32,663 nucleotides of DNA from a virus, in IMG/VR virus record IMGVR_UViG_3300000352_000001, positions 1 to 32,663 of that record, one strand, 5' to 3'. This document shows positions 1-32,663 of the stretch, in pieces. Numbering within the stretch: the first letter of the stretch is position 1; every line of letters begins with the position of its first letter. The notes under the pieces are model-generated. The model was not told where the DNA came from and searched no databases. It saw nothing but the letters and a program-made list of their open reading frames with translations. The translations under genes were made by a program, and so were the position numbers.

Positions 1-101
1 CGTCAGGGTTGCTGCTGTTTTGCATCAATCTAGCGATGAGCTTAACTGGCTTCATTGTAGGATGCTCTGCACTCTTCGTTGGTTTGTCGTATCGAAGTAC
101 A
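1..101. repeat. Terminal direct overlap, identical to 32563-32663; marks a circularly closed or permuted contig
   Basis: Base-by-base comparison: cgtcagggttgctgctg...gtatcgaagtaca occurs at both window ends. The minus-strand ORF stays in frame across the junction. Confidence 0.95.
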
Positions 102-1081
102 CTTGTTTGGACTTCTTCATATATCTTTGTTAGTATCTCTTTTACTTCTTTGGCGTTCATTTTACTGATATTAAAGTTTTCATTGAACGTTGTTGACCAC
201 GTGCGATCGTCTATAAAGTAGTGAGCTGCTCCCGGCTTCCAACCATAGATGCAAGGTTCGTGCTGCCATTGGTAGTCTTGTCTTCCAAGTGTAAATGCAT
301 TCTTGACCCAGTTGATTGTTTGCTTGATGTCTAGTCCTGCTCTTTTAAGTGCCATTCTAAACTCAATATCATTACTATCGCCATACCAAACATAGAATGA
401 TCCGCCCGGTTTAAGATATGCTGCCATGTTTCCAAAACTATCAGTTAAGAATTCTAGGAACGCTTCATCGTTCATATTGTCGTTTTGGATTCCGCTTCGT
501 TTGTTGGATCCTCCGCCTTTATAATCAACGTTGTATGGTGGATCTGTTATGATGCAGTCAATCATTTTTCCATCCATAAGGCTGTCAATATCATTTTTAA
601 TACGTGCATCACCACATATGAGTCGGTGTCTTCCTAGTTGATAAATATCACCTAGTTTGCTCTTTGGTTTTGGGTCTAGTGTGAAATCATAATCATCACC
701 TTCGACATCGTTAACACTCTTCTCTTTTTTGAAGCCAAAGATTGTCATGTCAATTTCTATGCCTTGAAGCTCTTCAATAAGTTTTTGTATATCCCAATCT
801 GCAATTTCGGACAGCTTATTGTCAGCTAACCTAAATGCTTTTATTTTTTCATCATCAAGTCCATCTAGAACTATAATGGGTACTTCATTCATCTTTAATT
901 TTAATGCCGCTCGAAGTCTGGTGTGTCCTGTTACGACTACCATGTTTTTGTCTACTGTGATTGGTACATTAAATCCAAACTGCTGAATGGATTCCATCAA
1001 AGGTTTTACTGCTTTGTCGTTTTTTCTTGGGTTATTTTCATACGGAATAATACTTTTTGGATCTATCATTTTTACTTCCAT
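1..1081 (-). CDS. ParB-like nuclease domain fused to a beta-class N6/N4 DNA methyltransferase. This is the N-terminal 360 codons; the gene runs off the window start and continues at 32562 down to 32381 (420 aa in total).
   Basis: Hand translation from ATG at 1081-1079 gave no stop down to base 1. It begins MEVKMIDPKSIIPYENNPRKNDKAV...VVVTGHTRLRAAL (ParB N-terminal motifs), then ...CIITDPPYNVDYKGG (motif IV, DPPY). The frame matches ORF 32381..32617 through the 101-bp overlap. RBS GAGAAGGA lies upstream. Confidence 0.9.
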   Translation of the reverse strand, partial: MEVKMIDPKSIIPYENNPRKNDKAVKPLMESIQQFGFNVPITVDKNMVVVTGHTRLRAALKLKMNEVPIIVLDGLDDEKIKAFRLADNKLSEIADWDIQKLIEELQGIEIDMTIFGFKKEKSVNDVEGDDYDFTLDPKPKSKLGDIYQLGRHRLICGDARIKNDIDSLMDGKMIDCIITDPPYNVDYKGGGSNKRSGIQNDNMNDEAFLEFLTDSFGNMAAYLKPGGSFYVWYGDSNDIEFRMALKRAGLDIKQTINWVKNAFTLGRQDYQWQHEPCIYGWKPGAAHYFIDDRTWSTTFNENFNISKMNAKEVKEILTKIYEEVQTSVLRYDKPTKSAEHPTMKPVKLIARLMQNSSNPD

Positions 1082-1212: not shown

Positions 1213-1515
1213 TCATCTGTTTGGTTTCTTAATGAGATTGCCTCTCTCATCGAACATCAATTCATCTCTCAGCTGCACCTCGCGCGCACGTTTTGAGTTG
1301 TGACATCCCCTACATAAAAGTTGCAGGTTCTTTGGGTTGATACTGATGGTTGGATCTGACACATTGTCCGCTGATAATGGAATGATATGGTGTACTTCTG
1401 TACCCACTCCACCACAGTCTTCACATATTCCCATGCGTTCAGCTCTTATCATTCTTCTTACACGTTTCCATGCTTCTGATTGATAGAATTTTATAACATT
1501 TTCAGGTGTTTTCAC
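1213..1515 (-). CDS. HNH endonuclease, packaging-associated type
   Basis: CEDCGG...EVHHIIPL...LQLLCRGCHNSK gives a zinc-finger HNH signature in a 100-aa protein. It lies upstream of the terminase module together with a P27-type TerS. Confidence 0.85.
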   Translation of the reverse strand: MKTPENVIKFYQSEAWKRVRRMIRAERMGICEDCGGVGTEVHHIIPLSADNVSDPTISINPKNLQLLCRGCHNSKRAREVQLRDELMFDERGNLIKKPNR

Positions 1516-1763: not shown

Positions 1764-2279
1764 TTATTCCTCCTTCCATCCGAACATGCTGATCTGTACG
1801 AGTTCCATTCTCTTCCTTGCTATCTCAGCATATTCCGGGTTGATTTCGATTCCGACATACTTTCTATTCATAGTGCTTGCCACGAAGCTTGTGGTACCTG
1901 ATCCTAAGAACATGTCTAAGACTGTACCGCTTGGCTTGCATCCTGCTTCTATGATTGTTTCTACCAGTTCCTTTGGGAACGTTGCGAAATGTTCGAATGG
2001 ACTTTTATGCGTGTTGATTGTCCACACACATCGTTTGTTTCGCATTAGGTTGTCATCTATGAGCTTTGGTTCTTGCTGCTTCTTGACTCTTCTTCCACCG
2101 TTCAGTGGTCCTATGACTCCCTTACTCCCCCTTACGACTTCTTTGTAGTTCTTCTGCATGGGTTCTTTAGCTTGGTTGAAGTAGTATGTTGTATTCTTTG
2201 TGAAGAAGTATATCTTTTCAAAGTCTACTGTGAACCTGTCCTTTACGCTCGATGGCATGGCATTTGGTTTGTACCACAC
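1764..2279 (-). CDS. N-terminally truncated beta-class N4/N6 DNA methyltransferase-like protein; retains the SAM-binding motif I but lacks DPPY motif IV
   Basis: Starts at GTG with WYKPNAMPSSVKDR...FEKIYFFTK, which is normally mid-protein. It ends with LDMFLGSGTTSFVA...GIEINPEY. No (D/S)PPY is present in this ORF or in the upstream ORF. Confidence 0.7.
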   Translation of the reverse strand: MWYKPNAMPSSVKDRFTVDFEKIYFFTKNTTYYFNQAKEPMQKNYKEVVRGSKGVIGPLNGGRRVKKQQEPKLIDDNLMRNKRCVWTINTHKSPFEHFATFPKELVETIIEAGCKPSGTVLDMFLGSGTTSFVASTMNRKYVGIEINPEYAEIARKRMELVQISMFGWKEE

Positions 2280-5075: not shown

Positions 5076-5445
5076 CGTCTTTTTTGAACTTTCTTTGACA
5101 GTTTTCTTGATGTGTGACTATCTCTAGATTGCTTTGTTTGTTATTTCTTTTTTTACGATCGATATGGTCGATTGATAGTCCGTTATCTATCAACGAGTCT
5201 ATATGCGCAAGGTTGACTCCATTGATATCGCCAAAGAGTTCTACTACTTTGATGTGTGTGAAGTGCCACTTTGTTCCTATCTTAATTCTGTAGTACCCAC
5301 TGTTATTTTTAAATTGTTTGATGATTCTTTTATATGTCAGTGAGTAACATCTTCCATAGTTGCTTAGCATGTGTTTAGTTCCCAAGAACCTCCACACTTC
5401 ACCTTTTTTATTCTTTATGTTACTTGGTTTTTTCTCATTGCCCAT
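5050..5445 (-). CDS. HNH homing endonuclease (NUMOD4-like and HNH)
   Basis: GEVWRFLG...LSNYGRCYS, then SIDHIDRKKRNNKQSNLEIVTHQEN. Confidence 0.75.
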   Translation of the reverse strand: MGNEKKPSNIKNKKGEVWRFLGTKHMLSNYGRCYSLTYKRIIKQFKNNSGYYRIKIGTKWHFTHIKVVELFGDINGVNLAHIDSLIDNGLSIDHIDRKKRNNKQSNLEIVTHQENCQRKFKKDDDDKISNQ

Positions 5446-6004
5446 GGCTGCTACCTCCTATTTCATCACCGAATGCATCCCATCCGATTCTCTCTTTTCT
5501 TGCAAACACTTCATACTTTAATGTATCAGGGAACATTGATTCTATGAGTTCATATGCTGCTTTTGGTTTTTTACTGTGATCTGAGTTGGGTTCATGAATA
5601 ACTGATGCGTGATGTCCGGGATTGATTGGCATTTGAATGTGTCCGGGTTTATACCACCATTGCAGGTATTCGTGGGTCATTCTAACTGTGAATGCTGGGC
5701 ATGGTCCGTTTCCTTTTGACCATATAATATCTGTATGCTTTTTGTATCCTAGACTCTTCATTATTTTATCTAGTTCAATATAATACTTTTGGATGCACCA
5801 TACAAACAGGTTTGCTTCTGGCGATGCAGTTGTTATTTCTTGAATGTATTTTTTAATTTCATCCAATGACATCGTTTTATATGGAACAGGCATTCCTGAT
5901 GAATTTGGTTTCTTTTTCATTTTTCCGCCACGCATGAGCTGCCATGGTGGATCTAAAAGTATTATGCCGTAATTTCCTTTTCCTGCAGGTGTTTGATATA
6001 TCAT
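5435..6004 (-). CDS. MT-A70 family N6-adenine DNA methyltransferase
   Basis: GIILLDPPWQ (DPPW catalytic motif). The size and layout are typical of MT-A70 phage methylases. Confidence 0.8.
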   Translation of the reverse strand: MIYQTPAGKGNYGIILLDPPWQLMRGGKMKKKPNSSGMPVPYKTMSLDEIKKYIQEITTASPEANLFVWCIQKYYIELDKIMKSLGYKKHTDIIWSKGNGPCPAFTVRMTHEYLQWWYKPGHIQMPINPGHHASVIHEPNSDHSKKPKAAYELIESMFPDTLKYEVFARKERIGWDAFGDEIGGSSHGQ

Positions 6005-13091: not shown

Positions 13092-13163
13092 CTAGCCTAT
13101 CTCATCAGCACTGGGTGGCTGCTCCAGTGGACTAGAGCCTGTGGGTTTGCTCTAGTTTCGATT
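13092..13163 (-). ncRNA. Type II hammerhead ribozyme motif, copy 2; predicted cleavage between 13130 and 13129
   Basis: Identical in sequence to copy 1 over the whole motif. The upstream ORF's stop codon (13162-13164) overlaps the 5' edge of the motif. Confidence 0.75.
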
Positions 13164-13425
13164 ATTCGTATGATTCTAGTATTTCTTGGTATTTATCATA
13201 AGCTTCTTGTAGTGCATCTTTGACTTCTTCTAGTCCTTCAATTTGTGATTCTATTTTTTCTATTTTTTCTTGCTCTTTCTCAGTGTTTTCGCCTGATTCT
13301 CTTTCATATGCTTTTTCTTCTATTTTCTCTTTTTTCTCTTCTAGGTTTGGGATGTATTCTTCTTCTATCTTGTTTATTTCATCCTGTAGTGTTTCCATTT
13401 TTGCTTCTATTTGCTTTTTTGTCAT
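13162..13425 (-). CDS. Highly acidic 87-aa predicted coiled-coil protein
   Basis: Hand count gives about 29 Asp+Glu against about 14 Lys+Arg. Heptad-like EEKKEKIEEK... repeats. Flanked by hammerhead copies 3 and 2. Confidence 0.5.
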   Translation of the reverse strand: MTKKQIEAKMETLQDEINKIEEEYIPNLEEKKEKIEEKAYERESGENTEKEQEKIEKIESQIEGLEEVKDALQEAYDKYQEILESYE

Positions 13426-13437
13426 TGTTTTCTCTTT

Positions 13438-13509
13438 CTAGCCTATCTCATCAGCACTGGGTGGCTACTCCAGTGGACTAGAGCCTGTGGGTTTGCTCTA
13501 GTTTCGATT
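13438..13509 (-). ncRNA. Type II hammerhead ribozyme motif, copy 3; predicted cleavage between 13476 and 13475
   Basis: Same as copies 1 and 2 apart from one substitution (plus-strand a at 13467, so loop I reads AGUAGCCAC). Confidence 0.75.
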
Positions 13510-13510
13510 T

Positions 13511-13687
13511 TTATTGTTCTTCGGTTATTTCATCTAGGCTGTATGTTTCGATTTCTTCTTCGGTTAATTTTCTATCGTATTCTATGATGTCGTAGTATGT
13601 ATTGGTTGGATCATCATGTCTTCTTATAAATCCGTTCATTGGTTGGCATCCTATGCTGAACCCTCTTAGTCGCATTCCGTATTTCAT
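13511..13687 (-). CDS. Hypothetical 58-aa protein, first gene of the early operon; start revised
   Basis: The track start at 13726 lies inside the -10 box. The ATG at 13687 follows GGAGGAATAAA. The product begins MKYGMRLRGFSIGCQPMNGF... Confidence 0.55.
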   Translation of the reverse strand: MKYGMRLRGFSIGCQPMNGFIRRHDDPTNTYYDIIEYDRKLTEEEIETYSLDEITEEQ

Positions 13688-13724
13688 TTTATTCCTCCAT
13701 GGCCTTTGCCTTATTTCTAACACC

Positions 13725-13757
13725 ATTATATCAAATAGCGTTTACTTAGTCAACGCT
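13725..13757 (-). promoter_or_regulatory. Near-consensus promoter TTGACT-N17-TGaTATAAT (extended -10) with an overlapping inverted repeat AGCGTT-N9-AACGCT as candidate operator
   Basis: -35 at 13753-13748 and -10 at 13730-13725. The inverted-repeat arms are 13737-13742 and 13752-13757. The site is immediately downstream of a terminator. Confidence 0.8.
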
Positions 13758-25850: not shown

Positions 25851-27050
25851 TTAGGCTTTCTTAGTTCCATGGACAAACGCATTTGGAACCGGTGCTGTAG
25901 CACAGTATTCGCTAGCAATGTATTCGGTGACACCTTTGCGAGCTTTTCTTTCGGTTTCAATTCGGATTGGAATCAATGAGTTTGCTTTGAAGAACTTAGC
26001 AACGTTACCGATGATGAAATCACCAGCTGCTAAGTTTTCATCAGTTTCAACTCTGATTGTACCGAATGATGAAATCCCGGTTGCGTTATTGAAGATTGGA
26101 TACTTGAAGTTTCCATTATCATCCTTTGAGAATAGGATTTTATCGTATACGTCAGTTGCGACATATACTTTTGCATTTCTGCGGAACTTAGGTGTGAGCT
26201 TGCCAAGACCAGCGATGATAGCATCGATTTCTTTGCCTGCATCATAACCACCAGTGACTGCTGCAAGAGCGCCCACTGTGATACCTTTGATGTGATCTGA
26301 GTTACCAGCACCGTAGATTAGGTCATATACCCAGTCTTCGTTCAAGTCTTGAAGGATTTGTTCGATGATATATGCGCCAAAGTCAAATGCTGTCAATGCT
26401 TGTACTTCATCAGTAACTGCAATGATGGTTTGTAAGTAACCTTTAACACCTGTTACTTTATCCCATTCGATTTGATTGTCTTTACCTTCAGCACCTTCAG
26501 CCTTAGCTTTAGCTTTGTCACGTGATTTTCTAAATACGAATTCTACTAAGCCGGGAATGCTTGTGAAAGCAACGTCACGAAGAATTGGGCTTAATAATCC
26601 TTCTTCTCTTAGAAGATCAAGGACTACGCTTGTTGGAATAAATACACCAGCGTTGTTGACACCGTTTACAAGTTCAGTTGCTTCAACGAATGTTGCAGCG
26701 GTAGTAGTCAATGCTACACCTAATGCACGTTTTTCTGGTTCACTGAATGCTTGGTTTTTGAAACCACGTCCAATGACTAAAGCGAGTTTATCTCTCTTTG
26801 TCATTTTTGCGATTCTCTCATCAACTTCACCTTTTGATCCTAGTTCAACTACTACTGGAGCAGTACCGAATCTACCATGGAGTGCTTCTCTCAATTGGTT
26901 GTTGAGAGTTTCCATGTCTTTTTCAGCGTTTCTGGATTCTTCTTCGATTACAAGAAGTCTTTCAGATGTTGCTGTAGCTGCTTCTTTTTTGAAGCCTTCA
27001 ATTTTGGATCTTAATGCTTCGATTTTACTTCTAATTTCATCAATTGTCAT
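25851..27050 (-). CDS. Major capsid protein, HK97 fold
   Basis: 399 aa with an N-terminal coiled-coil delta-like region. It follows the prohead protease. Confidence 0.85.
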   Translation of the reverse strand: MTIDEIRSKIEALRSKIEGFKKEAATATSERLLVIEEESRNAEKDMETLNNQLREALHGRFGTAPVVVELGSKGEVDERIAKMTKRDKLALVIGRGFKNQAFSEPEKRALGVALTTTAATFVEATELVNGVNNAGVFIPTSVVLDLLREEGLLSPILRDVAFTSIPGLVEFVFRKSRDKAKAKAEGAEGKDNQIEWDKVTGVKGYLQTIIAVTDEVQALTAFDFGAYIIEQILQDLNEDWVYDLIYGAGNSDHIKGITVGALAAVTGGYDAGKEIDAIIAGLGKLTPKFRRNAKVYVATDVYDKILFSKDDNGNFKYPIFNNATGISSFGTIRVETDENLAAGDFIIGNVAKFFKANSLIPIRIETERKARKGVTEYIASEYCATAPVPNAFVHGTKKA

Positions 27051-27064
27051 TTTTAATTGCCCTC

Positions 27065-27718
27065 CTATTTTATTTTTTCTAATCTTGCAAGCACATTCTT
27101 GCGTTGTTCTTCTAACTTTCTTTCTTCCGCAGTCTTGGAATCTTCCAATTCCTGCTTGCGTGAAGCCTCCACTTCACCAAGTCGACGTGCATAGATTTCG
27201 GTTTGATCATACGCAGGATGAGCTACTGCTGCTACATCATAGAGTTTTCCTATTTTTCGTACTGTCCACGTGTGGGTTTCCTTGTTATAGGATTCTTCTT
27301 CTATTGTAAAAGCAAAACTCATTTTATCAATGATGCCTGTTCGAACTAATTCATATAAATCTCTTCCTGATTGTGTGTTAACTAGTTTTGCTTTAAAGTT
27401 AACTCCTTCAGGTTTAATTTCAAGTTCTAATGACTTGTTTTTTGTTCTTGCAACGACATGATTGTCATCGTGATTAAACTTTAGGAAACATTGACTAATA
27501 TCAGTGTTATTCAATGCTGCTGCATCGATAATTTCTTTATAGTCTACTCCTTCATATTGAAATAGGATTGTTTCTTTGTTGAATACGATTGGTTGTCCTT
27601 CGACAATCATTTCATTTGATTCGGTTCCATCATTCGATCTGACATGGACACCTGAGAACTCTCTCATGTAGTTGCCATGGCGATTGATTCTTAAATCGTT
27701 AATAAGTTGTTTTTCCAT
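27065..27718 (-). CDS. HK97-family prohead serine protease
   Basis: Lies between portal and capsid. Contains HDDNHVVART...DKMSFAF motifs, and the C-terminal coiled coil is scaffold-like. Confidence 0.75.
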   Translation of the reverse strand: MEKQLINDLRINRHGNYMREFSGVHVRSNDGTESNEMIVEGQPIVFNKETILFQYEGVDYKEIIDAAALNNTDISQCFLKFNHDDNHVVARTKNKSLELEIKPEGVNFKAKLVNTQSGRDLYELVRTGIIDKMSFAFTIEEESYNKETHTWTVRKIGKLYDVAAVAHPAYDQTEIYARRLGEVEASRKQELEDSKTAEERKLEEQRKNVLARLEKIK

Positions 27719-28936
27719 CTATTTATCCTCCTTAGGTTTAGGATTTGTTAAGTCTTCCTCTTCTTGCTGCTGTTTTTGTTCTTCTAGTTTAGCATAATTA
27801 AGGAATGTATATGGTTCATCCCCACCTTCAACTGGTGGAATATAAAGCAATTCGTTGACGACATTTGGAATGTGTACTGGTGATTTTTGAATGATTGCTG
27901 CAACTGATGCTCTTGTTTTTAATGAAGCAGTTTGGAGTCTATTTGCATCTACTCTTATTTCGTTTCCTACTTCTCTTTCTCTAGGAGTTAGTAGTTTGTC
28001 TGTAAGTTCAGCTGCGATTTTTATTGCTATAGGTTCCATGTTTGTTTCATAGTAAGCTTGGAACTGATCTTCATTATAGTTTGCTGATAGCATCGAGTCA
28101 TTAATGTTTAGATAGTCCTTCACTTTCTTTTCAAGTAATGCCATTATATCGGAATCAGCATATTTTCCTTTTGCTGTGTCCAATTGAATTACTTGTTGAG
28201 CTGCATCAATATATGCTATTGCGGCTGATTCACTTCCAAGGTATCTATCTGAGAATTCTTTAGCTCTTTTTTCTTTTTGATCGTCAGATAGCACTGTTGG
28301 CGTTGAAACTAAAAATCTAATAAATGCTGACATTCGAATGGACTGTTCAAGTCCTTCATAGTTTGTCTTAATGATTTTGATAACTTGTTCGATTGACTTA
28401 TCTAGCTTACCGAATGTATCTACTATAAATCCTACATTTCTGGATATGATAATCATGTCATTCATATCAGTCACGTATGTTTCGTTTCCAATTCTAAATT
28501 TGAAGTATAGTTCTTTTTCATCGGATCTTATTTCAACCGATTCGGTTGGTATAACCCATAATGCCTTTACTCGATCGGATGCTATTGTATCACCACGTTC
28601 AACAAATATCATTGCGTTATTGTTCATATAGTACTCAAGAACTACTTTTTCCCAGAATGTGGGTGCGTTCATCGCTGGATTAGGTCTAGTACTTAGGATG
28701 TAGTTTAACGTGTTTTTATTGGTTGATACTGCACCTTTGTAATAGACTAATGGTCTTATTTTGGATCCATGACGAGCGTGGGTATTACATGCTGTAACAA
28801 ATGTTTCATTCAACTTAGGATTACTTTCGCCTGTAAAATATGGACTAATGACATTTAGGCTTCTGAGTTGACTTCCTACTTTTTTACTTTTGAATATGTT
28901 AGCAACGTATGTTGTTGCATTTTGAAACCATCCCAT
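27719..28936 (-). CDS. Portal protein, HK97 family
   Basis: 405 aa immediately downstream of TerL. Confidence 0.8.
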   Translation of the reverse strand: MGWFQNATTYVANIFKSKKVGSQLRSLNVISPYFTGESNPKLNETFVTACNTHARHGSKIRPLVYYKGAVSTNKNTLNYILSTRPNPAMNAPTFWEKVVLEYYMNNNAMIFVERGDTIASDRVKALWVIPTESVEIRSDEKELYFKFRIGNETYVTDMNDMIIISRNVGFIVDTFGKLDKSIEQVIKIIKTNYEGLEQSIRMSAFIRFLVSTPTVLSDDQKEKRAKEFSDRYLGSESAAIAYIDAAQQVIQLDTAKGKYADSDIMALLEKKVKDYLNINDSMLSANYNEDQFQAYYETNMEPIAIKIAAELTDKLLTPREREVGNEIRVDANRLQTASLKTRASVAAIIQKSPVHIPNVVNELLYIPPVEGGDEPYTFLNYAKLEEQKQQQEEEDLTNPKPKEDK

Positions 28937-28937
28937 T

Positions 28938-30677
28938 TTATACCTCCTGTCCCTTTTGTCCTAGGTAGAACCCTATGTCATCTGCTATTCTAACATAACA
29001 GTTCAAAATCGTTGCAAAGCCGTCTATTTTGCGCTCACGCTGATCATTGATTTTCTTAGGCATATAGTTCCCATTTCTATCTTGTTCCAGCTGTACGTTT
29101 GATAAACACCACTTCGTGATTGGGTTGTTTTGATAACATAACATCTTTTGTCTAAGATGTGCTTCGATCAGCTGCATAGGAATACTAAGTGTTTTGGCTC
29201 CTTGGGCAGTTGCAACTAAGCATGTATCTCTTTGATATCCTCTCGATACTAAATCTGATATAAGATATTGAGCTGAATATCTATCGTATTGGATGTACTG
29301 GTACATCCATCCCTTTTCTCTAAAGTTGTTACTGATGTAATCAGCTATATCCTGGTATTCGATGAGTTCAGTACCGGATATTCTTACAAGACCACGTTCT
29401 ACCCATGCTGCCCATGGTATTTTGTTGTTCTTGTCTTGAAGTCTTTCATTGTAAAATTTAGCAGTGATCCAGTACATTGTTATTGCAATTGCTCGAGGCT
29501 TTTTACCTTCAATCATATCTTCCTTGTCGAATAACATTGTAGTGAAACTTGTAAGGTCACCAGTTCTTGACAAGTCTAACCCACCTATAACAAATGAATT
29601 ATCGAATTTCTTCAATTGTTCTTCTGTGTACTCTATCTCATTATTCAAGTCATCAAAGTTTAACCATCCTTTTCCTGTGATACCACGAATGTTAAAGTCT
29701 TTGGTTAGGACGGTATTCATATAGTTCTTATCCGATTCAGCTCTTTGCACTTGATCCTGAATATATTTTACTTGTTTTATAACGCCTAGCGATGGATTTG
29801 CTTTTATCCAATTCTTTTCATCAGCTATTTCTTCTATGGAGTCCATTTCATAGATTAGTGGTAGTAGCGTATCGTCCGGGCTAATTCCTTCTAGGATATT
29901 AACTGCGTGATCATACACGTTGTCATATAGTCCTTCTCTTACGAAGCCTGCAGTACTAATCATCGAAATAATAGGTTGCTGTCTGGCTGATGTTGACTGT
30001 TTTAGAATATCATAGATTGCTCTTTTTAGTTCGTGGACTTCATCGATAACACCTAAGCTTGTATTTAAACCATCGAACGTTTGAACGTTTGATGATAATA
30101 CCTTGGCCAACGAAGATGATCCTTTAAGCTTGATACTTTTTGGTGGTGCTATTCTATATGTAAATATCTTAGCTAGTTCTCTTTCTCTCTTAATCATATC
30201 GATTGCTTCTTCGATGATTCGTTGTGCTTGGCTCGTTACGGTTGCTGCAGCATAGACTTCGGCTCCTTTTTCGTGGAGTATACCAAAGAGCGTTAAAGGC
30301 GCATTCATTGTGGTTTTACCGTTTTTACGTGCTACGACTAGAAAACTCTCAGTAAATCTTCTTTGATGTGTATCTCTTCGCAGCGTTCCGAATAGTGTTT
30401 GAGCCCATGCTTTTTGCCATAGCATTAGTTCTATTTTTTTACCTGCCCATTCACCTTTTGATTGGCGACAAAACGTTTCTGAAAACTTGATAAATTTTAA
30501 ACCTGGATTTGGGTTAAAGTAATACAATGGATGCTCGTCATTTATGATCGGTTTCATCCATTTTAGATATACTTTTTTTACTTTTTTTGATACTAAGATT
30601 CGTCCGGACTCAATCTCTTCGATGTACTCTCGGATATAGTTTGGTTTATCTTGATAATCCATTCTAGTCCTCCTCAT
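28938..30677 (-). CDS. Terminase large subunit
   Basis: Walker A-like VVARKNGKTT, Walker B GVIDEVHE, and nuclease aspartates GGLDLS and KIDGFAT. Confidence 0.9.
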   Translation of the reverse strand: MRRTRMDYQDKPNYIREYIEEIESGRILVSKKVKKVYLKWMKPIINDEHPLYYFNPNPGLKFIKFSETFCRQSKGEWAGKKIELMLWQKAWAQTLFGTLRRDTHQRRFTESFLVVARKNGKTTMNAPLTLFGILHEKGAEVYAAATVTSQAQRIIEEAIDMIKRERELAKIFTYRIAPPKSIKLKGSSSLAKVLSSNVQTFDGLNTSLGVIDEVHELKRAIYDILKQSTSARQQPIISMISTAGFVREGLYDNVYDHAVNILEGISPDDTLLPLIYEMDSIEEIADEKNWIKANPSLGVIKQVKYIQDQVQRAESDKNYMNTVLTKDFNIRGITGKGWLNFDDLNNEIEYTEEQLKKFDNSFVIGGLDLSRTGDLTSFTTMLFDKEDMIEGKKPRAIAITMYWITAKFYNERLQDKNNKIPWAAWVERGLVRISGTELIEYQDIADYISNNFREKGWMYQYIQYDRYSAQYLISDLVSRGYQRDTCLVATAQGAKTLSIPMQLIEAHLRQKMLCYQNNPITKWCLSNVQLEQDRNGNYMPKKINDQRERKIDGFATILNCYVRIADDIGFYLGQKGQEV

Positions 30678-31161
30678 TCATGAGATCAAGCACATCACTT
30701 TTTGGCTTGTTCTTACTGTGAGCATTTCCTATTCTTGCTCTTCCTACAGGAGTTAGGCATAACTGCTCCGCTAATTTAGATATAATTTTGGATTGCTTTT
30801 CCATGGTTGCAAATGTTTTGTCTAGCATCTTTTGTCCAGCATCATTCCCGGACACTACTTGATTTACTTTTGCCCATGTTTCTTGCGCCTTTTTATATAT
30901 CGCTGTAGCTTCGCAGTACATGACTAATGCAGTGATATCGAGATCGTTAAGGATTTTAATTTCCATTTGTGCATATAATCTCATGATTCTTCGCCATTCT
31001 TTTTTGGCTTCATCTGTTAGATACTTTGGAACTGTTAGCTTTGCTTTTGTTTTGAGCTTTGCTTCAATCTCTTTTCGCATCTCGATTTCTTCACTGTTTT
31101 TTTTATGACTTTGGTTGTCAATGGCAGCTGCAGGAATAGGTTTTCTACCAGTGTTTCCCAT
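30664..31161 (-). CDS. Terminase small subunit, P27 family
   Basis: The pattern PKYLTDEAKKEWRRI...LDITALVMYCEA...LSKLAEQLCLTPVGRARIG is typical of P27-type TerS. Confidence 0.8.
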   Translation of the reverse strand: MGNTGRKPIPAAAIDNQSHKKNSEEIEMRKEIEAKLKTKAKLTVPKYLTDEAKKEWRRIMRLYAQMEIKILNDLDITALVMYCEATAIYKKAQETWAKVNQVVSGNDAGQKMLDKTFATMEKQSKIISKLAEQLCLTPVGRARIGNAHSKNKPKSDVLDLMNEED

Positions 31162-32221
31162 AGTAGTGGCATCCGCCAGCTATTTCACTGTATTTGATAT
31201 CTCTTAGTCCTAGACGTTTAATAATGGATCCTGGTGTGAGCTCAATGCGTTTGATGTAGTCAATAATTTCTTTTCTATCATCAGCATCTATGCTTCCATT
31301 AAGTATGATGTTTACGCTTAATGGTTCTTTGATTCCAATTCCGTATGCAACTTGAATTTGCACATCTGTTAGTCCATGGCTTTTAAATTTATCAATTGTT
31401 CTTACTGCAATTTCTCTAGCTGCGTAGGATCCGCTTCTATCTACCTTGCTTGGATCCTTACCTGAGAATGCTCCGCCACCTACCTGGATATATCCGCCAT
31501 ATTGGTCGCATACGATTTTTCTTCCTGTGAGTCCTGAATCAGCTTCTGGTCCACCCAGTGTCCATCGTCCGGATGGATTTGCAATGATTTTAACTTGCTC
31601 AATATTTTTTACTTCATTCAATCTAAGTGATTGGTGAATGATTTGGTGGATTGTTTCTTTTACTGTTTTTTCATCAATGTTTTCATAGTGACATGCGCTC
31701 ACTAGGATTGTATGCACTGACTCTTTTGGGTACTTATCCAAGTCGACTGTAACTTGAACTTTTGCATCGCCTTTGAAAATTCTTCCTTCATCAGCATAAT
31801 GTTCGATGTGTTTAATAATATGATTTGCTATGTGGAATCCGAATGGTAGGTAACTTGATGTTTCACTTGTTGCGTATCCAAACATAATTCCTTGATCCCC
31901 TGCTGCAGGATCATCCGCATTGGTTCCATCAACCGCATGATTGATTTCTTGTGATTGTTTGCCTAATAGATTAATGACTTCATCTACTTGGTATTTCAGT
32001 TTGAATGCGATGTTTTTGACTACAGCTTCGATTTCTTCTTTTGTGAATGATTCGCTTGTTTCACCAGCTACAATGACAACTCTATCTTTGACTAAAGTTT
32101 CAGCTGCAACTCTGGCGTTTTTATTTTTCTTAAGTGCTGCATCCAATATGGCATCGCTTATTTGATCGGCATATTTGTCAGGATGATATTTTGATACTTG
32201 TTCTGTGCTAAATAGTTTCAT
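31145..32221 (-). CDS. metK: S-adenosylmethionine synthetase (methionine adenosyltransferase)
   Basis: HPDKYADQISDAILDA, GDQGIMFGYA, KGDAKVQVT, GGPEADSGLTGRKIV and GGGAFSGKDPSKVDRSGSYAAR all align to canonical MetK motifs. Confidence 0.9.
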   Translation of the reverse strand: MKLFSTEQVSKYHPDKYADQISDAILDAALKKNKNARVAAETLVKDRVVIVAGETSESFTKEEIEAVVKNIAFKLKYQVDEVINLLGKQSQEINHAVDGTNADDPAAGDQGIMFGYATSETSSYLPFGFHIANHIIKHIEHYADEGRIFKGDAKVQVTVDLDKYPKESVHTILVSACHYENIDEKTVKETIHQIIHQSLRLNEVKNIEQVKIIANPSGRWTLGGPEADSGLTGRKIVCDQYGGYIQVGGGAFSGKDPSKVDRSGSYAAREIAVRTIDKFKSHGLTDVQIQVAYGIGIKEPLSVNIILNGSIDADDRKEIIDYIKRIELTPGSIIKRLGLRDIKYSEIAGGCHYYGKHW

Positions 32222-32379
32222 CGGTTTTGTACCCCTTTTCTTGTTTCCTTAATGTCTTCGCTTAATACCTTTGCTACACCGTCTTTTACTTCTAAGACTA
32301 CTGTAGTTGTCATATCTGATTTGCTGCTCTTATCGATTGACACGATTCTTTTTGGGTTTGTTTCTTTTTTTTGTTTCAT
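32218..32379 (-). CDS. Hypothetical 53-aa protein between the ParB-methylase and MetK; below the ORF-track cut-off
   Basis: Hand translation gives MKQKKETNPKRIVSIDKSSKSDMTTTVVLEVKDGVAKVLSEDIKETRKGVQNR. GGGAGGATAGT precedes the ATG, and the stop overlaps the metK start (ATGA). Confidence 0.5.
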   Translation of the reverse strand: MKQKKETNPKRIVSIDKSSKSDMTTTVVLEVKDGVAKVLSEDIKETRKGVQNR

Positions 32380-32380
32380 A

Positions 32381-32663
32381 CTATCCTCCCATGGTTTCGC
32401 TATTATTTAGTTTAACAGCTTTTTGCTTTGTCATTTCTTCCCATCTATTGATGATCACATCAACATACTTTGGGTCTAGTTCGGACATGTAACATGTTCG
32501 GTTCATTTGTTCAGCTACGATGAGTGTGGTTCCAGATCCACCAAATGGATCCAAGATAGTTTCGTCAGGGTTGCTGCTGTTTTGCATCAATCTAGCGATG
32601 AGCTTAACTGGCTTCATTGTAGGATGCTCTGCACTCTTCGTTGGTTTGTCGTATCGAAGTACA
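32381..32663 (-). CDS. C-terminal part of the ParB-domain/DNA methyltransferase fusion; the same gene as 1..1081 read across the circular junction
   Basis: LDPFGGSGTT (motif I). The frame is continuous with 1..1081 once the 101-bp overlap is collapsed. Confidence 0.9.
   Translation of the reverse strand, partial: VLRYDKPTKSAEHPTMKPVKLIARLMQNSSNPDETILDPFGGSGTTLIVAEQMNRTCYMSELDPKYVDVIINRWEEMTKQKAVKLNNSETMGG
32563..32663. repeat. Terminal direct overlap, identical to 1-101
   Basis: Direct comparison of the two window ends. Confidence 0.95.

Follow-up and report, generated by a model that had tools for sequence, protein, structure and literature searches.

The gene at 31145..32221 of the window, by which we mean the entire stretch of 32,663 nucleotides that was analyzed, is confirmed as a complete and intact S-adenosylmethionine (SAM) synthetase gene, metK, lying inside the packaging block of a phage. 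Phage MetK beside phage DNA methylases is a common and already described arrangement, of which the window is a fresh example. What is new here is the phage-only signature clade to which the protein belongs, the purifying selection on the gene, the excess of methylase linkage and the absence of a SAM riboswitch. The explanation that we favor, and that we hold to be somewhat probable, is that the gene provides a riboswitch-free supply of SAM for the phage methylases late in infection, leading to anti-restriction methylation of the progeny genomes. As both the phenomenon and this explanation are already in the literature, current understanding is unchanged.

As the window ends in a 101-bp terminal direct repeat (32563..32663 repeats 1..101), we consider it a circular phage contig, with 32,562 unique bases. 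All genes called or annotated in the window lie on the minus strand, and the head, packaging and tail module is complete. The block of interest has the order HNH, ParB-domain DNA methylase, orf53, MetK, TerS, TerL, and the features referred to in the analysis are the following:

31145..32221, minus strand: metK, a 358-aa S-adenosylmethionine synthetase of a phage-specific short clade (Pfam N, M and C domains, phrog_1569 and structural model)
32218..32379, minus strand: orf53, a 53-aa ORF without assigned function, whose stop overlaps the metK start (ATGA)
32381..32663, minus strand: C-terminal part of a ParB_N plus N6_N4 DNA methyltransferase, running over the circular junction
1..1081, minus strand: N-terminal part of the ParB_N plus N6_N4 (DPPY) DNA methyltransferase (ParB_N 3.7e-07, N6_N4_Mtase 2.9e-37, phrog_498 8.4e-147)
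1213..1515, minus strand: HNH endonuclease (PF01844, 9.6e-09), upstream of the methylase/MetK/terminase block
1764..2279, minus strand: truncated N6_N4 methyltransferase remnant, the C-terminal SAM-binding half only (Pfam profile positions 80-220 of 221)
5435..6004, minus strand: second phage DNA methyltransferase, MT-A70 family (DPPW; PF05063 1.9e-18; phrog_359)
30664..31161, minus strand: TerS, terminase small subunit (Terminase_4 1.9e-16; phrog_83), sharing 17 nt at its start with the 3' end of metK
28938..30677, minus strand: TerL, terminase large subunit (TerL_ATPase and TerL_nuclease, Pfam)

The ParB-methylase named in the first-pass annotation proved real, with its ParB_N and N6_N4_Mtase domains encoded across the contig junction (32381..32562 plus 1..1081, about 420 aa in all), and a 420-aa gene is called at the same position in the sibling contigs L169 and L172. 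The MT-A70 methyltransferase is a likely further consumer of SAM. In the remnant at 1764..2279, the DPPY segment is absent and in-frame stop codons are found upstream, while L170 and L171 have a full methylase of 303 aa in this slot, and L169 a C5 methylase. The small orf53 has no Pfam or PHROG match, is kept at the same position in sibling contigs (L003-L005 and L169-L172) and presents a dN/dS of 0.21 (against L003). The window also encodes a DnaD-like loader. Its other genes include some for HTH regulators and one for a small tyrosine recombinase, and the phage may therefore be temperate. When GenBank phages were searched with 30600..32663 by blastn, a single match was obtained, of 138 bp at 72%; given this lack of a near DNA relative among GenBank phages, our comparisons were based on protein and metagenome look-ups.

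The reading of the gene as a full-length MetK, made in the first-pass annotation from its motifs, was borne out. The ORF starts with ATG and contains HPDKYADQISDA, AGDQGIMFGYA, GLTGRK and GGGAFSGKDPSKVDRS, and all three Pfam domains are present, namely S-AdoMet_synt_N (PF00438; 77.1 bits, E 1.6e-21), S-AdoMet_synt_M (PF02772; 90.1 bits, E 1.5e-25) and S-AdoMet_synt_C (PF02773; 125.7 bits, E 1.6e-36). As these scores are all well over the curated cut-offs, the match is far beyond chance. The E. coli MetK aligns at 2e-67 in phmmer (window residues 3-357 against E. coli residues 4-364), and the phrog_1569 match, at 6.9e-95, covers profile positions 2-337 of 346. The AlphaFold monomer model has a pLDDT of 86.1 and a pTM of 0.86, with a poorly defined region at 220-237, and Foldseek matched it to MAT structures from Ureaplasma, E. 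coli and human (TM 0.85 and rmsd 2.7-3.1 Å to 6RK7 and 7LOO).

Fifteen residues with catalytic, triphosphate-, metal- or methionine-binding roles are retained, with H13, D15, K16, E41, E54, Q89, D109, D152, K154, D228, R234, K235, K255, K259 and D261 of the window protein corresponding, in that order, to H14, D16, K17, E42, E55, Q98, D118, D163, K165, D238, R244, K245, K265, K269 and D271 of the E. coli enzyme. All fifteen are invariant both in a 19-sequence alignment and in 46 clade members, and the GGGAFSGKD loop is also kept in the window MetK. The E. coli and human enzymes have 20 of 21 active-site residues in common, and F230 (human F250) pi-stacks the adenine ring (PMC8715544). The equivalent position in the window MetK is Trp220, located within the low-confidence region of the model; as Trp is still aromatic, adenine stacking is plausible. 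Judged by the appearance of its residues and fold, the window MetK looks catalytically competent. In the literature searched, we found no activity, SAM-pool or methylome data for any phage MetK, and a paper on MAT oligomerisation (PMC9202080) does not mention phage enzymes.

The window protein falls within a large phage-only MetK clade that has 50/50 bootstrap support and a long stem branch (0.23). The clade is marked by four substitutions, F230W, G13Y (Tyr, Trp or Phe), T250Q and H257V, which correspond to Trp220, Tyr12, Gln240 and Val247 of the window protein, the canonical DTYGG becoming DQYGG, and Trp occupies the F230 position in 119 of 120 clade members. Among the non-clade sequences compared, F230, T250 and H257 are near-universal, and G13 is present in all of those in which the motif was captured. 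These replacements affect otherwise conserved positions, close to the active site and the dimer interface. With such residues replaced, the kinetics or specificity of the enzyme may differ from those of canonical MetK. The short form is typical of the best 120 database matches, 116 of which are shorter than 370 aa. Identity to any sequence outside the clade is at most 44.5%, and the closest prophage-like copies, in Clostridia MAGs, reach 49-52%.

With respect to selection, comparison with a homologue of 83% identity gave a dN/dS of 0.118 for metK, similar to that of the capsid gene (0.112), and the window metK is under purifying selection. The synteny of the block persists at 83%, 56% and 54% MetK identity. 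A very recent capture from a host, with no conservation in related phages, had been named in the first-pass annotation as an outcome that would speak against its interpretation; such capture is ruled out by the bootstrap support, the low identity outside the clade and the 49-52% identity to the Clostridia copies. Its description of metK as an integral part of the operon rather than a scar is upheld by these same data, and the overlaps that it reported, of 4 nt with the 53-aa ORF and 17 nt with TerS, follow from the coordinates.

In terms of regulation, a search against Rfam at the gathering threshold revealed no SAM riboswitch in the window. L089 (a Clostridia prophage, in JAZQEC010000005.1) and L090, both of phage type, likewise gave none, whereas seven of nine canonical-type (non-signature) genome loci, mostly from Bacillota, carry a SAM riboswitch about 70-230 nt upstream of metK. 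No convincing promoter specific to metK was identified in 28000..32663, where a weak consensus scan yielded 10 promoter-like sites while 15.2 were expected from shuffles, and a similarly weak scan of the same region revealed no minus-strand terminator-like site. Together with the overlaps, these scans hint that metK is not an autonomous expression unit and may be co-transcribed with its neighbors.

The statement in the first-pass annotation that a synthetase is uncommon in small phages did not hold. MetK is present in 142 GenBank phage records and in at least 575 IMG/VR contigs, has its own phage family (PHROG 1569) and is frequent in Streptococcus prophages of 33-40 kb. Helicobacter "phage" MetK matches were left out of the phage-encoded count, as the H. 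pylori prophage paper places the host metK at the flank of the prophage insertion site. Published surveys agree with this picture and place MetK among the auxiliary genes reported most often for phages: of the Ca. Heliusvirales genomes, 58.9% have a SAM synthetase, and K00789 was the most abundant auxiliary gene in viromes of pig- and chicken-manure anaerobic digesters. As early as 2014, the Streptococcus prophage phi1207.3 was described as carrying MetK, HNH, ParB-methylase, C5-methylase and terminase genes, with MetK proposed as the methyl-donor supplier (PMC4260502).

The linkage of MetK to DNA methylases can be expressed in numbers. A DNA methylase lies within 7 kb of MetK in 56 of 80 IMG/VR loci, and within 2.5 kb in 49 of them, as compared with only 2 of 80 genome_contigs loci; at the other 24 viral loci, no methylase was found within 7 kb using a limited query set. 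The methylase is ParB-fused in 50 of the 80 IMG/VR loci, so that the pairing of MetK with ParB-methylases, whose spread the first-pass annotation had proposed to look up in databases, is indeed widespread. An HNH gene adjoins MetK in 24 of the 80; in L003, L006 and L008, the MetK block has an HNH gene on its upstream side. Two gene orders are found, HNH, ParB-MTase, MetK, TerS, TerL or HNH, TerS, MetK, ParB-MTase, TerL, and the same or a permuted order is seen in L003-L024. Methylase cassettes differ among sibling contigs whose MetK proteins are 100% identical: the synthetase stays constant while the methylases vary. We also considered that the ParB-methylases are non-specific, M.EcoGII-like enzymes with a huge demand for SAM. 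This was dropped, as the M.EcoGII paper reports no extra domains in that protein and makes no mention of ParB.

In the explanation that we favor, the 358-aa protein would have methionine adenosyltransferase activity (ATP + L-methionine -> SAM + PPi + Pi) and stem from an old phage-borne MetK lineage, and its gene would be transcribed together with those for HNH, the ParB-methylase, TerS and TerL. Most of the genome metK genes of Bacillota type that were checked have a SAM-I riboswitch that turns them off; lacking it, the phage gene would go on providing SAM late in infection. This SAM would feed the phage's own DNA methyltransferases, the ParB-N6_N4 and MT-A70 enzymes, and progeny genomes would be methylated before or during packaging, which would shield them against restriction when they enter the next host. 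We infer that the demand of the methylases for SAM is the selective reason for keeping an enzymatically active, late co-expressed MetK. Such feeding of phage methyltransferases fits the conserved methylase linkage and is the role already proposed for phi1207.3. Counting against it, the sole genetic study of a prophage metK described phenotypes in host aggregation and biofilm, not methylation (PMC8223999).

That study speaks for lysogenic conversion, in which a prophage-expressed MetK alters host physiology (AI-2, polyamines, aggregation, biofilm). There, deletion or overexpression of metK from the S. agalactiae prophage 12/111phiA changed flocculation, chain length and glycocalyx, although complementation in GBS was not complete, and secondary mutations confounded it (PMC8223999). 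While the possibly temperate nature of the window phage, given its recombinase and regulators, would suit this role, the window metK overlaps both neighbors in a packaging operon, with no convincing promoter of its own and no flanking terminator, and we therefore consider lysogenic conversion unlikely here. We regard a counter-defense role, the alternative raised in the first-pass annotation, as similarly improbable. Here, the phage MetK would restore SAM that was depleted by the host or by a competitor phage carrying a SAM lyase, or would replace host MetK inactivated during infection. The substitutions at conserved positions could confer insensitivity to inhibitors of host MetK, and the T3 SAMase (PMC8406200) offers a precedent for phage handling of the SAM pool. 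The tight linkage, however, is to methylase genes and not to known anti-defense genes, and the literature searched contained no SAM-depleting defense tied to phage MetK, no anti-defense role for it and no link to BREX.

The clade signature also raises the question of whether the enzyme has changed its function. The signature clade could have a remodeled nucleobase pocket and generate a non-canonical sulfonium cofactor, or could have strongly altered regulation, and would be matched to the partner ParB-methylase, as would suit the replacement of the adenine-stacking F230 by Trp in nearly all members, the loss of G13, T250 and H257, and the long, fully supported stem. Yet all methionine-, triphosphate- and metal-binding residues are unchanged, Trp can still stack adenine, and Streptococcus phage MetKs with canonical residues occupy the same genomic context, such that we deem this the least probable of the explanations considered. 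We are also doubtful, if slightly less so, that signature-clade MetK and the ParB-domain methylase, which adjoins it nearly always in the packaging block, form a dedicated two-enzyme module with non-canonical properties, tuned to very dense or processive methylation during packaging. For the MetK of such a module, the non-canonical options would include insensitivity to product inhibition or to inhibitors, and altered nucleotide specificity yielding a cofactor variant. As is generally known, SAM has many uses, and metK lies directly upstream of the terminase genes; SAM might accordingly serve a general metabolic boost apart from DNA methylation, be it polyamines that condense DNA at packaging or RNA or protein methylation. 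With no SAM decarboxylase, spermidine synthase, radical-SAM or other non-DNA SAM enzyme among the Pfam-scanned ORFs, and with a statistical linkage that is to DNA methylases, we find this very unlikely.

The proposed supply of SAM to phage methylases for anti-restriction methylation is easy to test, given the clade signature, the ParB-methylase linkage and the riboswitch absence. The window is a clean and compact example, being a circular genome of 32.6 kb whose metK shares bases with both neighbors in the packaging block. Gut and anaerobic viromes are rich in phage MetK, yet no biochemical characterisation of it was found.

Among the closest known systems are those of Streptococcus temperate phages (phi1207.3 orf29, Javan20, Javan424, phi-m46.1 and others), in which a 345-353-aa protein is annotated as S-adenosylmethionine synthetase. 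Their metK lies between the replication and terminase genes, and HNH, C5 methylase and ParB-domain adenine methylase genes are found in its vicinity, a context that resembles that of the window. Both proteins are of the short type (about 335-365 aa), without the 9-aa N-domain loop (VHSDMGFDA in E. coli) and most of the C-terminal tail. Nonetheless, they are only 42-43% identical, and the Streptococcus phage proteins retain the canonical G13-type residue, F230, DTYGG and H257, placing them outside the signature clade of the window. Replication also differs, relying on DNA polymerase, primase and helicase genes in the Streptococcus phages and on a DnaD-like loader in the window. Cellular MetK/MAT enzymes (E. 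coli 1FUG and 7LL3; Ureaplasma 6RK7) share the three-domain fold and catalytic residues with the window MetK, which is about 40% identical to the E. coli enzyme, 25-40 aa shorter and distinguished by the four signature substitutions. The window gene further differs from canonical-type genome metK in lacking the SAM-I riboswitch and in its location inside a phage packaging operon.

The Ca. Heliusvirales and digester reports likewise describe gut and anaerobic phages in which SAM synthetases and DNA methyltransferases occur together, but as tallies at the KEGG level that give no clade, context or mechanism. Ca. [quoted passage not shown] Finally, the T3 SAMase (SAM lyase) is likewise encoded by a phage and targets the SAM pool of the host to manage restriction and modification; it is reported to destroy SAM, inactivate host MetK and keep phage DNA unmethylated (PMC8406200). 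The window MetK is unrelated to it as a protein and would act in the opposite direction, making SAM and traveling with methylases.

The metK gene of the window is real and correctly identified. The first-pass annotation had described a full-length S-adenosylmethionine (SAM) synthetase overlapping both of its neighbours, and this holds: the gene has an ATG start, its product carries the N-terminal, central and C-terminal S-AdoMet synthetase domains (Pfam; E 1.6e-21, 1.5e-25 and 1.6e-36) and matches E. coli MetK at 2e-67, with residues 3-357 aligned (phmmer, PDB sequences), and the overlaps are those listed below, together with the other features considered.

Features of the window.
31145..32221 (-), metK ORF, ATG start, 358 aa
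32218..32379 (-), 53-aa ORF (orf53), 4-nt ATGA overlap with metK
30664..31161 (-), small terminase gene (TerS), 17-nt overlap with metK
spanning the contig junction (-), ParB_N + N6_N4 (DPPY) methyltransferase (ParB-methylase), about 420 aa
1213..1515 (-), HNH endonuclease gene, preceding the ParB-methylase
5435..6004 (-), MT-A70 methylase
1764..2279 (-), truncated N6_N4 methylase remnant, 171 aa, C-terminal half only, without the DPPY segment
4248..5445 (-), neighbouring HNH_3/NUMOD4 ORFs of 275 aa and 131 aa, homing-endonuclease type
13511..13726 (-), 71-aa ORF with a DarA_C domain (PF18789, 5.9e-13)
13437..13509 (-), type II hammerhead ribozyme (Rfam RF02276, 38.6 bits against a gathering score of 37)

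The window MetK was aligned with the E. coli enzyme, whose sequence is consistent with the PDB alignment, and with 17 homologues from phages or metagenomes. The equivalents of E. coli H14, D16, K17, E42, E55, Q98, D118, D163, K165, D238, R244, K245, K265, K269 and D271, as well as the GGGAFSGKD loop, are invariant in this alignment, and the same 15 positions are invariant among 46 members of the phage clade described below. An AlphaFold2 model built from the alignment (mean pLDDT 86.1, pTM 0.86) is poorly defined only at residues 220-237 and resembles the Ureaplasma, E. coli and human MAT structures with a TM of about 0.85 and an rmsd of 2.7-3.4 Å (Foldseek). Compared with the 83%-identical homologue of a sibling contig, metK has a dN/dS of 0.118, close to that of the capsid gene (0.112; TerS, 0.069), and is therefore under purifying selection. 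We infer that the enzyme is most likely catalytically active.

An exact 101-bp direct repeat at the termini (1..101 and 32563..32663) identifies the window as a circularly assembled contig, with 32,562 unique bases and a G+C content of 36.8%, whose arbitrary linearisation point splits the ParB-methylase gene. Every called or annotated gene lies on the minus strand, and the local order is HNH, ParB-methylase, orf53, MetK, TerS, large terminase subunit (TerL), portal, S78 protease and capsid. The 32.6-kb genome holds three HNH genes, two of them being the HNH_3/NUMOD4 pair immediately downstream of the gene for the MT-A70 methylase. Elsewhere, the hammerhead ribozyme, whose conserved core elements CUGAUGA and GAAAC align to the Rfam family, separates ORFs 13511..13726 and 13162..13425. 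The ORF immediately upstream of it, with its DarA_C (Defence against restriction A, C-terminal) domain, may encode a second anti-restriction function of the same phage. As for orf53, neither Pfam nor PHROGs gave a match to it; every close sibling contig retains it (dN/dS 0.21), and L006, a relative at 56% identity, lacks it.

Two points that the first-pass annotation had left to be checked, conservation in related phages and the spread of MetK beside ParB-methylases, can now be answered. The gene order of the window, orf53 included, is identical in the sibling contigs L003 and L004 (MetK 83% identity), is kept as HNH, ParB-methylase, MetK, TerS, TerL in L006, and is permuted to HNH, TerS, MetK, ParB-methylase, DUF4314, TerL in L008 (54%). 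MetK and the ParB-methylase are likewise placed between TerS and TerL in L010, L012, L013, L014 and L016, and in this alternative order a C5 methylase sometimes precedes TerL. At least 575 viral contigs in IMG/VR carry a MetK relative; the best 80 loci were screened by phmmer with methylase, terminase and HNH queries. A DNA methylase was found within 7 kb of MetK in 56 of these (within 2.5 kb in 49, immediately adjoining in 20), and a ParB-fused methylase in 50; terminase genes flank MetK in 40 and an HNH gene adjoins it in 24. In the same screen of 80 bacterial genome-contig loci, most with a canonical-type MetK, only two had a methylase near metK. The window ParB-methylase itself has tblastn matches in 885 of 50,697 GenBank phage records.

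Sibling contigs whose MetK proteins match that of the window at 100% identity differ in the slot upstream of HNH: it contains a 543-aa C5 methylase in L169, a full 303-aa N6_N4 methylase in L170 and L171, and the truncated remnant with a DUF7659 gene in the window. MetK is therefore the fixed partner while the methylases beside it vary, methylase cassettes being swapped between near-identical phages. Mosaicism is also strong between the window (25851..32221) and L003, with nucleotide identities of 99.2% for portal, 92.4% for TerS, 86.6% for capsid and 80.8% for MetK.

The 120 best protein-database matches to the window MetK (three at 79-88% identity, the rest at 51-57%) share a signature. S-K/R-Y/W/F-HPDK replaces the canonical S-E-G-HPDK in 108, Trp stands at the E. 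coli F230 position in 119, V-C/A-D-Q-YGG replaces I-V-D-T-YGG in all 120, and Val occupies the H257 position, just before GGGAFSGKD, in 112; a C-terminal AEGCHY motif is also part of the common signature. As F230 pi-stacks the adenine ring and 20 of 21 active-site residues are common to the E. coli and human enzymes (PMC8715544), the Trp substitution is notable; it is a conservative one. These proteins have 334-365 aa, except for four of 453-454 aa (P0066, P0075, P0103 and P0116), and in the two of these that were aligned, P0066 and P0075, MetK is fused at its N terminus to a conserved stretch of about 100 aa.

A neighbour-joining tree was built from 160 distinct MetKs of related phage or metagenome, IMG/VR and bacterial genome contigs, with E. 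coli MetK and the window protein among them; the 23 that bear the signature group as a single clade in 50 of 50 bootstraps (stem 0.23). Identity to the window MetK is 48-84% within the clade and does not exceed 44.5% outside it, with E. coli MetK at 40%. A very recent host gene capture, named in the first-pass annotation as what would tell against its reading, is ruled out by this clade and these identities. The nearest named-genome copies are in uncultured Clostridia MAGs (52% and 49% identity), and a gut Clostridia host is plausible. At least eight public contigs, up to 35 kb long, encode exactly the window protein.

No SAM riboswitch was detected in the window (Rfam, gathering threshold). 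Among 11 genome-collection loci, a SAM-I riboswitch precedes metK by about 70-230 nt in seven of the nine with canonical-type MetK, mostly Bacillota assemblies, whereas both phage-type loci (L089 and L090) lack one (Rfam). Consensus scans found no minus-strand terminator-like site from the methylase to TerL, and fewer promoter-like sites than in shuffled sequence. Together with the gene overlaps, these scans suggest that metK is co-transcribed with the packaging genes and, with the riboswitch absence, that it may escape SAM feedback.

The role proposed for MetK in the phage is plausible rather than established. Late in infection, the phage would make its own SAM synthetase, free of riboswitch control; the SAM produced would sustain the phage DNA methyltransferases, and progeny DNA, methylated before packaging, would survive restriction in the next host. 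Rival readings are that MetK counters SAM depletion, that it is a neofunctionalised enzyme, or that it serves polyamine or general SAM supply. Lysogenic conversion, a further rival, has some genetic support from a Streptococcus agalactiae prophage (PMC8223999) but fits poorly with a gene overlapping both neighbours in a late operon.

Supply of the methyl donor by a phage MetK has already been proposed in the literature, for phi1207.3, and phage MetK is well documented. The window protein matches phrog_1569 at 6.9e-95 (PHROGs v4), a family that clearly consists of SAM synthetases yet bears the label 'unknown function'; this gap conceals the gene wherever phages are annotated with PHROGs. The searched literature contained no definition of the signature clade, no quantified link to ParB-domain methylases, no riboswitch contrast between phage and genome metK and no biochemical test of a phage MetK. 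The main value of the present case is as a compact test case, both of phage cofactor supply and of the clade's unexplained active-site signature. The synthetase had been called uncommon in small phages; this premise is wrong, as MetK occurs in 142 GenBank phage records (tblastn; 95 from Streptococcus phages), most already labelled S-adenosylmethionine synthetase, and 58.9% of Ca. Heliusvirales genomes carry K00789 (PMC11283538), which in viromes of pig- and chicken-manure digesters was the auxiliary gene of highest abundance (PMC13644194). In Javan20 and Javan424, MetK precedes the terminase genes and lies between replication genes and adenine and cytosine methylases, and in phi1207.3 (PMC4260502) a 353-aa SAM synthetase (orf29) is accompanied by HNH (orf30), a ParB-like and DNA methylase protein (orf32), a C5 methylase (orf33) and terminase (orf38/39).
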